A stretch of 64,000 nucleotides of DNA from Octopus vulgaris (lineage: Eukaryota), in NCBI GenBank assembly GCA_951406725.2, contig OX597827.1:83142001-83206000 (forward strand). Reading direction: 5' to 3'. The position numbers were made by a program, and so were the translations under genes. The notes beneath the pieces were generated by a model. It made no database searches. It was not told the DNA's origin and worked only from the letters and a program-made list of their open reading frames with translations. Each line of letters opens with the position of its first letter. The stretch's first letter is position 1. Below are positions 20,593 through 63,487 of the stretch, piece after piece.

Positions 20593-22640
20593 AAAGAATG
20601 CTAATGCTAATAAAAGAATGCTAATGGAAACTGAGAAAAGTCTACATCAGTCCCATGAAAAGGAGAGAGCAGATAAAGAAGATTGGGTAATAGAAAATAT
20701 AAAATCAAACCCTAAAGCTTTCTTTAAGTTTGCCAAAGAGACAGCCACAGTGCACCAGAGAATAGGACCTCTCTTCCAAAAAGATGGCTCTCTCACAGGA
20801 AATCCCACGAGGATAAGTGAAATACTGAACGAACAGTTCCAAAGTGTATTCACTACACCTCTAGGACACAGGCAAGTAAACAACCCAGAAGAATTCTTTG
20901 CCACTTTACCAGCGGCCAAAGAGACAAAAATTGAGTACATCAACATCGAAGAAGATGATATCACACTAGCCATTGATGAGATTGACACAAACTCAGCTGC
21001 TGGACCTGATGGATTCCCAGCGATCCTTCTCAAATCGTGCAAACGAGCCCTTGCAAAACCGCTACAGCTTCTTTTTCAGAGCTTTCTTGCAAGTGGTAAG
21101 CTCCCAGTCAAACTGAAAGAGGGGGTAATATGCCCTATCCATAAGGGAGGTAGCAGAGCAGATGCTAAAAATTATAGGCCTATCTCTCTGACCTCACACA
21201 TCAGCAAAGTCATGGAACGAATAGTCCGTAAGAAACTAATCATGTTCCTTGAAGAAAATGACTTACTGTCTGACACCCAGCATGGATTTCGACCAGGTAG
21301 AGGCTGCCTAACACAGCTCCTGCAACACTATGACTGGGTGTTGAAACAGCTACTAAATGGCTCAAATGTGGATGTAATATATCTTGACTTTGCAAAAGCC
21401 TTTGATAAAGTCGACCATGGTATGATCTGTCACAAACTGCGTGGTCTCGGCATAGGCGGGAAACTTGGAGAGTGGCTGCACAACTTCCTAAAAGACAGAA
21501 AACAGGCAGTTGTGAGCAATGGAGCCACCTCCAGGGAAACGCAAATAACAAGCGGTGTCCCACAGGGCACTGTCTTGGGGCCACTGATGTTCATAGTGGC
21601 CCTTTCAGACATGCCTTCAGTTGCTACGATGACCACCCTTGCTAGCTATGCAGATGACACAAAGGTCTCCCACGCAATACAGAACCCTGAAAATATTGCG
21701 CATCTGCAACATGAGCTGGACACAATATACAGGTGGGCTGAGGACAACAACATGCAGTTTAATGCAGGTAAGTTCCAGGCCCTGCGCTACTGGCACACAA
21801 AGGTAAATGACGTGAAGACTGGATACACTGGCCCAGGAAGAATTGCAATCCCTGAGTCAAAATCAGTGCGTGACCTGGGCATTGACATGAGCAATGATGC
21901 ATCTTTCCAAATGCATATTGCTAATCTGGTGATAAAATGCAGACGGCTAGCTGGATGGATTCTCCGAACTTTCAGAACAAGAGAGAAGGAGACACTGATG
22001 GTCCTATGGAAAACATTTGTCCTCAGCCGCTTGGACTACTGCTCCCAACTTTGGTCACCACACAATATAAAACAAACAGCAGAACTCGAAGCAACTCAGA
22101 GAAGCTACACAAAGAAAATCGTCTCAATGCAAAATGTCAGCTACTGGGAAAGACTGAAGGTATTAAACCTCTTCTCCCTGGAGCGGAGGCGGGAGAGATA
22201 TGCAGTAATATACATCTGGAAAATCCTGGAGGGTCTTGTCCCAAACTTTGGCATTCAAAGTTACTCCAACCGCAGAACGGGGCGCCGCTGCGTGGTGCCA
22301 AGGATTCCAACATCACCATCAAAATACAGGTCCAGATACTGCAACAGCTTGGGTTTCAGAGGACCACAGCTTTTCAACATCCTCCCTAAATGCCTGAGAG
22401 ACTTACATGGTGTGGATGTGGGTTTCTTTAAAACTAAACTGGATCTCTTCTTGTTGGGAGTCCCAGATGAACCTACCTCACGACAGGAGACACGGATGCG
22501 GGCAGCAGCATCGAACTCCCTTGTTGATCAAGTGCCACGTATCAGAGGTGGATTCACAAACTAGTGTGGCTCATTCAGCGGTGGTGCCCCAGCATGGCCG
22601 CGGCCTTCGGGCTAAAACATTTTTAAGGATTTAAGGATTT
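20593..22640 (+). mobile_element. 5'-truncated CR1-group LINE (family A related), young copy inserted in (TA)n
   Basis: Uninterrupted RT reading frame, short 3' UTR with stem-loops and terminal TTTAAGGA x2. (TA)n abuts both ends. Confidence 0.96.
20618..22564 (+). CDS. LINE ORF2 remnant: complete reverse transcriptase domain and C-terminus, AP-endonuclease domain missing (648 aa)
   Basis: Motifs [71 protein letters not shown] and LERRRERY, with no stops or frameshifts. The Met start is probably internal to the original ORF2. Confidence 0.93.
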
Positions 22641-29403: not shown

Positions 29404-29698
29404 GTGTGTGTGCGTGTGTGTGTGCGTGCGTGCGTGTGTGCGTGCGCACATACATGTGTTCTAGAAGCAAAATATCTTTGAGTGTTAAGTAAACAACATT
29501 AACTATTTCTTATTCATCAGGCTAGAGTGGCTATGTCTACCAGAGCAGTGCAACGACAACAATATTGCTGTACCATGTGAAACTTTCATTTCTGTCAACA
29601 TTCCATACAGGATCTGAATCGCAAAGAAAACCACTTCATTTCACCTCAAGTTTTTTCACCGTCACTCAAATCATCAACCAACAAGTGACTACAAATAC

Positions 29699-29734
<36 letters not shown>

Positions 29735-29778
29735 TACGCCACTGTCACTGCCACTGTCATCATCATCATCATCATCAT

Positions 29779-30020
29779 GGTGGCAACTGGCATGCTGGAC
29801 AAAATGCTTAGCAGCATTTCATCTTCATCTGTCTTTACATTCTAAGTTCAAATTCCACTGAGGTCAACTTTGTCTTTCGTCCTTTCAGGGTTGATGATTA
29901 TTTATTACGTATTTCAGGGTCAGAATCTGTACCAGTTGAACAATGAGGTCAATGTAATGGAATAGTCTCCTCCTCCTCCTCCTCCCACCAAATTGCAATC
30001 CATGGGCCTAGAGTAAAAAG
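29779..30020 (+). mobile_element. SINE family S1 old copy
   Basis: GTTCAAATTCCACTGAGGTCAACTTTGTCTTTCGTCCTTTCAGGGTTGAT. Confidence 0.78.
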
Positions 30021-50096: not shown

Positions 50097-50386
50097 GGAG
50101 GCGCAATGGCCTAGTGGTTAGGGCAGCGGACTCGCGGTCGTAGGATCGCGGTTTCGATTCCCAGACCGGGCGCTGTGAGTGTTTATTGAGCGAAAACACC
50201 TAAAGCTCCACGAGGCTCCAGCAGAGGGGGGGATCCCGGCTGTACTCTTTCGCCACAACTTTCTCTCACTCTTTCTTCTGTTGGCCTGCTCGCTTAGCCA
50301 GCGGGGCTAAAACATGCGAAGCGCATTGTGACCAGCGATGTGTAACAACATCTGATAGCCTAGTCGGTCACGGTGATCACGGTGAT
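50097..50386 (+). mobile_element. tRNA(Arg)-like SINE family S3 with an alternative tail
   Basis: The first ~180 bp are near-identical to the head of 41721-42105. The tail differs and ends in TCACGGTGA x2. The element sits within (TA)/(TACA)n. Confidence 0.92.
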
Positions 50387-58252: not shown

Positions 58253-58332
58253 ATTATTTTTGGGAAGCAGTGTCGATTTTTACAATCCTGCAAATGATAA
58301 TAATAATATTTTATAAGCTTATCAGCGATCAC

Positions 58333-58559
58333 CGTGTAATGACTAAAGAAAACAGTCTAATATTGGGGGCATTAAGCCCTCGACAGAGAAAAAAAGGACG
58401 GTTTCCATACGCATGGAACTCGATCCCACAGTTCTTTTTTTCGCGACAAGTGTGCTACCATTACACCAACGTACCCCTATGCGTATGGAAACCCTACTTT
58501 TTTTTTGTCGAGGACTTATATGCCCCCAATATTAGACTCTTCTCTTTAGTAATCACACG
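58333..58559. mobile_element. Fold-back/MITE-like element with ~80-bp imperfect inverted arms
   Basis: 58333-58414 is the reverse complement of 58479-58559, for example AGTCTAATATTGGGGGCAT / ATGCCCCCAATATTAGACT and GGTTTCCATACGCAT / ATGCGTATGGAAACC. Confidence 0.85.
58405..58475 (-). pseudogene. tRNA-like cloverleaf (degenerate) inside the fold-back element
   Basis: Acceptor GGTACGT/GCGTATG, D arm GTGT-AATGGTA-GCAC, anticodon arm CTTGT-CGCGAAA-AAAAG, T arm GTGGG-ATCGAGT-TCCAT. Lacks U33 and the 1-72 pair. Confidence 0.65.
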
Positions 58560-61273: not shown

Positions 61274-61381
61274 TATACGACGGGCTTCTTTCAGTTTCCG
61301 TCTACTAAATCCACTCTCAAGGCTTTGGTCGGGCCGAGGCTATAGTAGAAGACATTTGCCCAAGGTGCCACGCAGTGGGAT
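60998..61381 (-). mobile_element. SINE family S2, 5'-truncated and fused directly to a LINE 3' end
   Basis: Matches 47238-47577; homology stops at GCAGTGGGA, where LINE sequence begins. Confidence 0.92.
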
Positions 61382-62700
61382 TGGTCCAGGCCATGTCTAA
61401 CTTAATAGCACCACCTGATAGGATTATCTAAATCCTGTTTAAGTCAAGTTTTGTTTATGGTCCATTCAAGTAGTGAGTTTTTGTTGTGTGAGTTGTATCC
61501 AATTATGGGTGGCTTATCTGGTATTCCTTGAAGGAATCTATCCAGACTCCGTTTAAAGTTGATTGGATCCTTTTCCTCTTTGATCTCTTTCGGGACAATG
61601 TTAAATAGGGCAGGGCCTGTTGAAAAGAAATTATGTTGCAGTGTACATGTATGCTGTGATCTTGAATTGGGCAGGGGACGTATGGCCCGTGGTCCCACTC
61701 TTGGATGAACCTTGAAGCTAATGTTCAGGTCGTTTAGGCAAAGTTGGCGGTATATTCTCCACATCGTACAAATGATGTACCGCTCACGGCGACGCTGGAG
61801 AGAGTAGAGTTTCAAGGCTTTAAGGCGGTCCCAATAATCGAGAACAGCCATGCCTTCAATTCGATTAGTGAGTGCCCTCTGGGGTGATTCAATCCTCGAG
61901 ATGTTTTGTCTTGTATGGGGAGACCACAGTGGGCAGCAGTATTCGAGGTGTGGCCGTACAAAGGAGGAGAAAAGTGGTATGATGACACCTTGCTCTCTGG
62001 ACCGGAAAGTTCTTAAGATCCAGGAACTCATCCTACGAGCTATATCGACCTTAGTGTTGATGTGGGCACTCCAACTGAGATCGTCATCAACAATTACACC
62101 CAGATCTCTGATATTGTTAGAGGCTGTGAGCGGTTCCCCTGAAGAAAGAGAGTATGGCTGTTTTAGAGAGGAATTTCTTCCAAAATCCATCAGCTCAAAT
62201 TTTCCCTCGTTCAGTTGCATTTTGTTTCTGTCTGCCCATTGACTCACAGCATATAGATCAGACAGGAGTTGAGTTCGGTCTGCTTCTTCATTGATGATTT
62301 GCTGGAGCTTAGTGTCATCAGCAAATATTTTCACTTTGCAGTAATGTACGACACTGGAAAGGTCGCTTATGTAAATTATAAAGAGTAGCGGGCCCAAGAC
62401 AGTCCCCTGGGGGACACCGCTGGTGACTTTTGCTTGGCTTGAGTGGACTCCATCAACTACATGTTGTGTTCTATTCGCCAGGAAATACTTAATCCAGTGT
62501 AGAAGTTTTCCACGGATTCCAACATTTGCCAATTTTGAGAGTAGGATATTATGGTCAACCCTGTCGAACGCTTTACTGAAGTCAAGATATATGACATCAG
62601 AGTTCGAACCTGTTCCCAAGGCTTTGAGTATATCTTCAATGTGGTGATTTGCATTTAGGAGTTTGTGGGTCTCCAGGAAGTCAGCTATCCTTGATCTTAA
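61381..62700 (-). mobile_element. 5'-truncated CR1-group LINE (family B related)
   Basis: RT motifs are present and the 3' UTR reads GGTGGTGCTATTAAGTTAGACATGGCCTGG, as in 52066-52097 and 57937-57966. Confidence 0.95.
61444..62700 (-). CDS. Partial LINE reverse transcriptase frame (~418 codons, no native start)
   Basis: [49 protein letters not shown] and LQRRRERY, with no internal stop. The QHGFR segment is missing. Confidence 0.85.
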   Translation of the reverse strand, partial: LRSRIADFLETHKLLNANHHIEDILKALGTGSNSDVIYLDFSKAFDRVDHNILLSKLANVGIRGKLLHWIKYFLANRTQHVVDGVHSSQAKVTSGVPQGTVLGPLLFIIYISDLSSVVHYCKVKIFADDTKLQQIINEEADRTQLLSDLYAVSQWADRNKMQLNEGKFELMDFGRNSSLKQPYSLSSGEPLTASNNIRDLGVIVDDDLSWSAHINTKVDIARRMSSWILRTFRSREQGVIIPLFSSFVRPHLEYCCPLWSPHTRQNISRIESPQRALTNRIEGMAVLDYWDRLKALKLYSLQRRRERYIICTMWRIYRQLCLNDLNISFKVHPRVGPRAIRPLPNSRSQHTCTLQHNFFSTGPALFNIVPKEIKEEKDPINFKRSLDRFLQGIPDKPPIIGYNSHNKNSLLEWTINKT

Positions 62701-62704
62701 TATA

Positions 62705-62761
<57 letters not shown>

Positions 62762-62845
62762 AAGGGTGGAAAGGAACACACGAGTAGATATATATGAAAA
62801 AACAAGTCAAAAATAGAAAATGCTAAGATGATTTTATAGTGAATC

Positions 62846-62889
62846 TTTCAGTACCGGTTTCGGTCATTTTAAGACCTTTTCAACTGTAA
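62846..62889 (-). ncRNA. Minimal type-I hammerhead ribozyme candidate (mirror copy)
   Basis: The minus strand reads TTACAG-TTGAAAA-GGTC-TTAAAAT-GACC-GAAA-CCGG-TA-CTGAAA and differs from the plus copy only in loop II. Confidence 0.72.
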
Positions 62890-63137
62890 CGATTAAATAA
62901 TTAAATTTAGAAAAATTAGAAGAAAAGTTTTTTTAAAAGAATATTTCTGTAGTAGTGTTCAGATATAAGTAGCATTCTGCCTTTCTCTGACTCCCTTGTT
63001 TGCACGACCTCGAACACACAAGTGCAAACAAGGGAGTCAGAGAAAGGCAGAATGCTACTTATATCTGAACACTACTACAGAAATATTCTTTTAAAAAAAC
63101 TTTTCTTCTAATTTTTCTAAATTTAATTATTTAATCG

Positions 63138-63181
63138 TTACAGTTGAAAAGGTCTCAAAATGACCGAAACCGGTACTGAAA
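63138..63181 (+). ncRNA. Minimal type-I hammerhead ribozyme candidate (U3:A8 variant)
   Basis: TTACAG-TTGAAAA-GGTC-TCAAAAT-GACC-GAAA-CCGG-TA-CTGAAA: helix I CAG/CTG, helix II GGTC/GACC, palindromic helix III, GUA cleavage triplet. Confidence 0.72.
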
Positions 63182-63265
63182 GATTCACTATAAAATCATC
63201 TTAGCATTTTCTATTTTTGACTTATTTTTTCATATATATCAACTCGTGTGTTCCTTTCCACCCTT

Positions 63266-63322
<57 letters not shown>

Positions 63323-63484
63323 TACGACAGGCTTCTTTCAGTTTCCGTCTACCAAATCCACTCACAAGGCATTGGTCGGCCCGGGGCTATAGCAGAAGAC
63401 ACTTACCCAAGATGCCACGCAGTGGGACTGAACCCGGAACAATGTGGTTGGTAGCAAGCTACTTACCACACAACCACTCCTCCG

Positions 63485-63487
<3 letters not shown>
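63323..63487 (-). mobile_element. SINE family S2 5' half (tRNA-like head to internal microsatellite)
   Basis: Minus strand AGGCGGAGGAGTGGTTGTGTGGTAAGTAGCTTGC...GGGTTCAGTCCC...GAAAGAAGCCTGTCGTAT. Confidence 0.9.

Follow-up and report, generated by a model that had tools for sequence, protein, structure and literature searches.

A hammerhead-bearing palindrome in Octopus vulgaris, probably a fold-back insertion of a Penelope-like terminal repeat

Within 64,000 nucleotides of Octopus vulgaris DNA (contig OX597827.1; this whole stretch is the window referred to below) lies a 514-bp palindrome with a hammerhead ribozyme motif in each arm. What is the sequence that is repeated here, and how did its two copies come to lie head to head? 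We argue from the sequence that the palindrome is most likely a fold-back insertion of the truncated 3' terminal repeat of a Penelope-like element (PLE), its pLTR plus tail; we give this reading a probability of about 0.7. Most likely, then, the palindrome is a known by-product of PLE insertion and not a new kind of element. An earlier, sequence-only reading had treated the 514-bp palindrome itself as the mobile unit. Our analysis does not establish this, and the literature treats such palindromes as by-products of insertion.

The palindrome and its surroundings

The palindrome (62757-63270) consists of two 249-bp arms (62757-63005 and 63022-63270) separated by a 16-nt spacer (63006-63021). 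Compared outward from the center, the arms differ at 3 of 249 positions (62871/63156, 62803/63224 and 62786/63241). Tracts of (TA)n lie on both sides, at 62700-62756 on the left and 63271-63324 on the right; we take them as the target. All of these values were re-derived and agree with the first description of the palindrome. No third copy of the arm occurs elsewhere in the 64-kb window. Arm divergence is 1.2% (95% range 0.25-3.5%), which corresponds to roughly 2-3 My with the rate given in PMC13282606, provided that there was no conversion.

Beyond the TA tracts the flanks are unlike each other. On the left, outside the element, is the 5'-truncated RT (reverse transcriptase) frame of a non-LTR retrotransposon (61444-62699, minus strand; RVT_1 E 2.1e-20), whose closest relative among the named entries of the 120 homologues listed is from Argonauta hians (58% identity). 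On the right, also outside, is a short interspersed repeat (63326-63486, plus strand) that presumably resembles an octopus SINE; a second copy lies near 61280-61390 (87% over 179 nt, microsatellite included).

Could the palindrome be a fold-back artefact of assembly or library construction? The difference between the flanks, LINE on one side and short repeat on the other, speaks against this. So does the distribution of the arm differences: relative to the family majority (see below), the left arm holds two of them and the right arm one. The topology, moreover, is known from PLEs. These points outweigh those that fit an artefact: no aligned contig spans the whole palindrome, no fold-back joints occur among those listed, and the (TA)n flanks are similar in length with one mirrored interruption (62710/63317). 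This last resemblance may reflect copying into the flank or chance. We regard an artefact as exceedingly improbable.

Elsewhere in the window, a 656-aa open non-LTR RT frame (20594-22564; RVT_1 E 5e-30) directly follows a 4-kb (TA)n tract, and related LINE fragments near 50300, 51850, 57600, 60400 and 61444 likewise adjoin (TA)n. A second, decayed palindrome at 58326-58559 is 74% self-complementary over 236 columns and lies close to TA tracts; it has no hammerhead match. At 2264-2499, a MITE-like element with terminal inverted repeats of about 25 nt adjoins (TA)n; we take its look to be of the mariner type. A weak Dicer_dimer match on the plus strand (29526-29858; E 0.0014, below cutoff, among 150 frames) is probably due to chance.

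The hammerhead motifs

A descriptor for type I hammerheads, applied to both strands of the 64-kb window, returned two matches, one per arm and both facing outward. The right-hand motif (63141-63178, plus strand) is of the minimal type. Its stem I has 3 bp (63141-63143/63176-63178), and a bulged extension is possible over 63133-63185. The core, 63144-63150, reads U3 U4 G5 A6 A7 A8 A9, with U3-A8 in place of C3-G8, a variant that the first description lacked. Stem II (63151-63154/63162-63165) has 4 bp closed by G10.1-C11.1. It is followed by GAAA (63166-63169) and by helix III (63169-63174), a self-complementary 6-nt palindrome. The GUA triplet, after which cleavage is predicted, ends at 63175, 94 nt from the outer end. 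The mirror motif (62849-62886, minus strand; predicted cleavage 3' of 62852 on that strand) differs from the right copy only in loop 2, at 62871. One complete, outward type I motif per arm, about 90 nt from the outer end, is what the sequence-only reading had described.

The hammerhead search suggested by that reading thus recovered both motifs by descriptor, and Rfam Hammerhead_HH9 also gave weak matches, one per arm, of 22.9 bits (E 0.013) and 21.8 bits (E 0.031), below its gathering score of 52. A stricter descriptor, written after the motif had been seen, matched 1 of 20,000 dinucleotide shuffles of the arm. Rfam matches to miRNAs, also below gathering, were set aside as hairpin and TA artefacts. 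Of 18 variable places across the repeat family, none lies in the 13 core positions, where 0.9 would be expected, and 2 lie in the 38 hammerhead positions, against 2.6 expected; neither is a significant depletion. Both variable hammerhead places belong to the 10.1-11.1 pair, one of them being a CpG site.

Would these ribozymes cut? As a monomer, the hammerhead folds no more stably than shuffled sequences do (z about -0.6), and its minimum free energy (MFE) structure leaves helix III open. Two helix III segments are predicted to form a 6-bp duplex (-10.3 kcal/mol). Minimal hammerheads of PLEs are described as having low, dimer-dependent activity (PMC4209133), and one is reported to need protein to cut (PMC11167929). 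The motifs may simply ride along passively; cutting would require dimerization through helix III or the help of a protein. The full palindrome is predicted to fold at -402 kcal/mol with 246 pairs. Whichever strand is read through, the sense hammerhead would lie in the second arm of the transcript, where it is predicted to be sequestered in the hairpin; the earlier claim of such sequestration keeps the standing of a prediction from folding energies, its sole support. The hairpin would also be a putative substrate for ADAR or Dicer, as that reading proposed.

Two further observations were not counted as evidence. The first, a weak lead, is an ATG in stem II (63160) whose frame ends after 14 codons. 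It stands 110 nt from the element end, near the position at which RT starts in an anole element (+111 to +118; PMC11167929). Within 63106-63143 there is a branch-point-like motif and an AG acceptor-like end, a weak signal in AT-rich DNA. The acceptor-like end coincides with the 5' strand of stem I (63143), an arrangement also known from the D. virilis Penelope intron (PMC4209133).

A minimal type I hammerhead with G10.1-C11.1 and a palindromic helix III is a feature of PLE pLTRs (PMC4209133), and it is present here. Is it sufficient to assign the monomer to a PLE? Another class of short, non-coding repeats with type I hammerheads has a similar size: the non-LTR retrozymes, which are head-to-tail tandems with canonical hammerheads (PMC7229834). 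The palindrome, in contrast, is head-to-head. A retrozyme monomer with a circular-RNA intermediate, inserted here as an inverted dimer, is a very unlikely explanation. The monomer of about 265 nt does fall in the retrozyme range of 150-450 bp (PMC7229834), and animal retrozymes have been argued to derive from pLTRs (bioRxiv 10.64898/2026.07.22.740005). The monomer is also mildly self-paired (z -2.16; 6 of 200 shuffles), its MFE structure pairing about 63034-63057 with 63199-63222. The hammerhead, however, with its 3-bp core stem I, is a minimal one as in PLEs, and go-back joints are absent among those listed, a weak negative. The retrozyme-like option raised earlier fails at this locus on its defining trait, the head-to-tail tandem, which is absent.

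Self-pairing of the monomer has one more aspect. Positions 63012-63023 are complementary to 63242-63253 (12 nt, one mismatch), a possible panhandle between the 5' end of the monomer and its tail. Such an end-to-end match arose in 3 of 2000 shuffles, in a post hoc test, and in 74 of 200 when allowed anywhere in the monomer. Longer self-similarity between the 5' and 3' parts was not significant by local alignment (236 of 3000 shuffles).

The repeat family and the origin of the palindrome

How common is the monomer? Among the 24 runs listed (assembled contigs), 20 contain the palindrome or part of it and 7 contain at least half of its words, with 6 organism labels and 13 studies represented. Four runs (X1, X3, X6 and X9) were aligned to the spacer plus right arm, 267 nt; X1, X3 and X6 carry three organism labels. 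In these three, 3751, 1179 and 1172 contigs aligned, respectively. Summed depth in X1 is near 1e6, against 30-46 for several single pieces; summed depth is not copy number, and we infer only roughly, after allowing for contig overlap, that the family has thousands of copies. The palindrome belongs to an abundant, young repeat family with many variants.

The spacer reveals where the unit begins. Depth over it is high in all three of these DNA-type runs (305,000 in X1 at 63006-63014). The spacer, on the plus strand, is therefore family sequence that continues unbroken into the right arm, and forms the 5' end of the monomer. It follows that the unit is a monomer of about 265 nt (63006-63269), spacer plus right arm on the plus strand and probably a PLE pLTR plus tail, together with an inverted copy 16 nt shorter. 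This copy, the left arm, lacks the first 16 nt of the monomer, and its hammerhead reads on the minus strand. No coding potential is apparent in the monomer, as every sense frame closes within about 34 codons.

Among the 19 of 220 loose-end rows listed, contigs leave the other end of the monomer for (AT)n behind 63239 in X1 (26 contigs) and X6 (15), and not in X3. These loose ends lie 30 nt before the element end and are mostly short (median 10-11 letters). These ends point to a candidate 30-nt optional PLE tail at 63240-63269 (plus strand), mirrored at 62758-62787, though they could be expansions of the internal ATATATAT.

A single contig of X9 (depth 4; among the 25 of 6120 pieces listed) holds a solo arm, 63020-63272, with 3 differences and a CA/TA microsatellite before it. 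It belongs to the same subfamily as the palindrome, with which it shares three minority alleles, C63078, T63056 and C63108. Both arms of the palindrome carry these alleles, rare as they are: at 63078, family depth is 99%, 92% and 93% T. Minority alleles in both arms are expected if both came from one template or one active source. The solo arm may instead have arisen by deletion. A single A>G difference that it has, at 63224, was rejected as an editing signal: G is the majority in DNA too, and the RNA status of X9 is a guess.

More distant relatives were also sought. Diverged members of the family have 63081-63181 in common, the hammerhead region. In X3, a loose end behind 63181 marks such relatives in 6 contigs (agreement 0.77), with an apparent ATG about 20 nt after the hammerhead; this ATG, absent from the palindrome's own family, is a lead to a coding parent element. 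The viral, metagenome and prokaryote collections contain no relatives: the exact arm motif has 0 matches in metagenomes and the hammerhead motif patterns 0 in viral contigs. A looser pattern hit 2 metagenome and 3 prokaryote loci, which we dismiss as chance, with 1-3 pairs in stem II and no BLASTN similarity to the monomer.

Do the ends of the unit fit a DNA transposon instead? The sequence-only reading named as its alternative a TA-targeting MITE with long terminal inverted repeats (TIRs). Such a MITE would be mobilized by a Tc1/mariner-type transposase, and its hammerheads would come from an old PLE fragment or be incidental. The long, near-identical inverted repeats are terminal and lie in a TA context, the outer end resembles, as we see it, mariner-type termini, and a classical short-TIR MITE sits in (TA)n at 2264-2499 of the same window, which we also count against the PLE reading. 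TIR-dependent elements conserve their ends. Here, however, the terminal 30 nt have about one third of the hammerhead-flank depth in two runs (0.32 in X3, 0.29 in X6), although not in X1 (1.04), and the measure is weak. Tail-less ends and a solo arm are seen, a MITE would not be expected to have an intact hammerhead at the position typical of PLEs, and there is no transposase domain in the 150 frames scanned, the longest of 237. A TA target-site duplication is unreadable inside (TA)n. We consider a MITE improbable.

The PLE reading is the best supported. Besides the hammerhead, an adjacent, head-to-head, 5'-truncated inverted copy is present, with the spacer belonging to the right-arm monomer. 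A bias to (TA)n or AT-rich targets is seen in both the palindrome and the X9 copy, which lie in TA/CA microsatellite, at two loci only. A Penelope-derived origin, as first proposed, is thus favored by the type, position and orientation of the hammerhead, the inverted copy, (TA)n, the solo arm and the tail-like ends; it lacks a linked PLE protein gene. Membership in a PLE family is accordingly unproven: the monomer resembles a PLE end, with no linked RT or endonuclease gene.

Several findings count against this reading. None of 150 window frames (the longest of 237) has a PLE-type domain. Both arms here carry the tail, which in PLEs is often at one end only (PMC8557442). In X1, depth stays level across 63033-63170 and does not fall toward the 5' end; this suggests a discrete non-autonomous unit of pLTR size over random truncation and so weighs against a by-product. 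Finally, variable fold-back points were not seen among the joints listed, with a reference cut at the spacer; the same cut makes the absence of strand-change or go-back joints among the matches listed uninformative.

How would a PLE terminal repeat give rise to the palindrome? We propose four steps. The PLE GIY-YIG endonuclease would nick (TA)n. The PLE reverse transcriptase would prime at the nick and copy an RNA, beginning with the tail end (63269) and reaching 63006. The 3' end of this cDNA would then fold back, leaving 16 nt unpaired, and copy itself through the arm and tail. Lastly, the new end would join the other, self-complementary (TA)n flank, and the host would fill in. The bottom strand has the corresponding order: right flank, antisense monomer to 63006, sense arm from 63022, left flank. 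Fold-back of first-strand cDNA primed in (TA)n would explain the equal outer ends, the shared rare alleles and the one-sided spacer. In an equivalent route, a dimeric enzyme would prime both target strands with one type of source RNA and yield the same product. A native hairpin that primed the fold-back would be indistinguishable from the copied arm.

The same enzymes might instead propagate the whole palindrome as a fixed, non-autonomous unit. Transcribed divergently from its center, it would yield a pair of identical sense RNAs held together by helix III, and both (TA)n strands would be primed by a dimeric enzyme. For such a unit one can cite flat depth across the monomer with high depth at the spacer, tails on both arms, the predicted helix III duplex (6 bp, -10.3 kcal/mol), the predicted dimeric PLE protein that extends both strands (PMC11167929) and the bidirectional promoter motifs proposed for pLTRs (PMC3846280). 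A solo arm of the same subfamily in X9 argues otherwise, as does the finding that hammerhead cleavage is dispensable for insertion in vitro (PMC11167929). Independent re-creation of the asymmetric 16-nt junction is hard to account for unless there is a native hairpin, which would fix the junction for a by-product too. We think a fixed unit unlikely.

A larger claim can be built on it. Octopod genomes would contain thousands of copies of a self-propagating palindromic hammerhead unit, whose two centre-out transcripts would dimerize through helix III and be co-inserted by a dimeric Penelope enzyme. The perfect 250-bp hairpins of this unit would be a main source of octopus's unusual abundance of long dsRNA and of its A-to-I hyper-editing, as palindromic Harbinger repeats are in Xenopus. 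This we hold to be unlikely. In octopus, the share of loci that could form long, near-perfect dsRNA is exceptionally high (4.4e-3) and hyper-editing is very high as well (PMC5625713); in that account the repeat responsible is not assigned. Palindromes like 62757-63270 are candidates for the source.

The locus alone is probably an ordinary by-product of PLE type. Its family is of some wider use. The family supplies many natural variants of a U3-A8 hammerhead, and because it is abundant and young, a genome-wide survey of its junctions could distinguish fold-back from two-strand priming, a point of PLE insertion described as still open (PMC8557442, PMC11167929).

Comparison with published Penelope-like elements

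An inverted, 5'-truncated copy and a tail are general in PLEs (PMC8557442). Solo pLTRs occur together with head-to-head palindromes, the latter read as self-priming on an antisense template, and bidirectional promoter motifs have been proposed within the pLTR (PMC3846280). Where an inverted pLTR overlaps the direct one, it does so by 15 bp; pLTRs measure 193-218 bp and an optional tail 31 bp (PMC3846280). The corresponding values for our palindrome are 16 nt, 234 nt and 30 nt. Biochemically, a purified PLE protein, predicted to be dimeric, cuts AT-rich DNA and extends both strands, and two RT start sites define the tail (PMC11167929).

The rotifer element Pen2a of Adineta vaga, an EN+ PLE (PMC3846280), shares with the palindrome a head-to-head repeat, an overlap of about 15 nt, a unit of about 200 bp, an optional tail of about 31 nt and AT-rich targets. 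The palindrome differs from it in having no ORF between or beside the repeats, a tail at both ends, and thousands of variants as against few copies.

The hammerhead has a close counterpart in the Cercyon PLEs of Schistosoma, in which the U3-A8 core variant is known (PMC4209133); the two have the U3-A8 covariation in common. Opposite-strand pairs of minimal hammerheads, reported 100-700 bp apart, are a second point of likeness (PMC4209133). The main minimal motifs of S. mansoni, in contrast, have a helix II of 7-8 bp and no helix III insert, whereas the 4-bp helix II and small palindromic helix III found here are as in Drosophila, rotifer and shrimp PLEs (PMC4209133). A search of papers for the activity of C3U/G8A hammerheads had 0 matches.

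Octopods have PLEs in plenty: in O. vulgaris there are 190 families, 31 of them with recent insertions, and together they make up 6.83% of the genome (PMC13282606). Hydra-1_Obim, a PLE of Octopus bimaculoides (PMC8557442), likewise has a (TA)n target and a hammerhead about 100 nt from its 3' end. We rejected it as the parent, however, as its hammerhead sequence and stems differ, and our palindrome is for this reason left with no named parent. Searches of the PMC8557442 supplement for the palindrome's motifs gave 0 matches. Nor did the papers searched contain a description of this hammerhead repeat family; Repbase, Dfam and the Zenodo library of PMC13282606 lay outside the search.

The closest published parallel in topology is Penelope-13_HM, of the Hydra clade (PMC8557442). 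It too has outward-facing hammerheads about 100 nt from each end, an inverted, 5'-truncated copy and (TA)n. It is 3 kb long, with coding sequence and a C3-G8 core, whereas the palindrome is non-coding and has U3-A8. The topology of the octopus palindrome is thus already published, as Penelope-13_HM.
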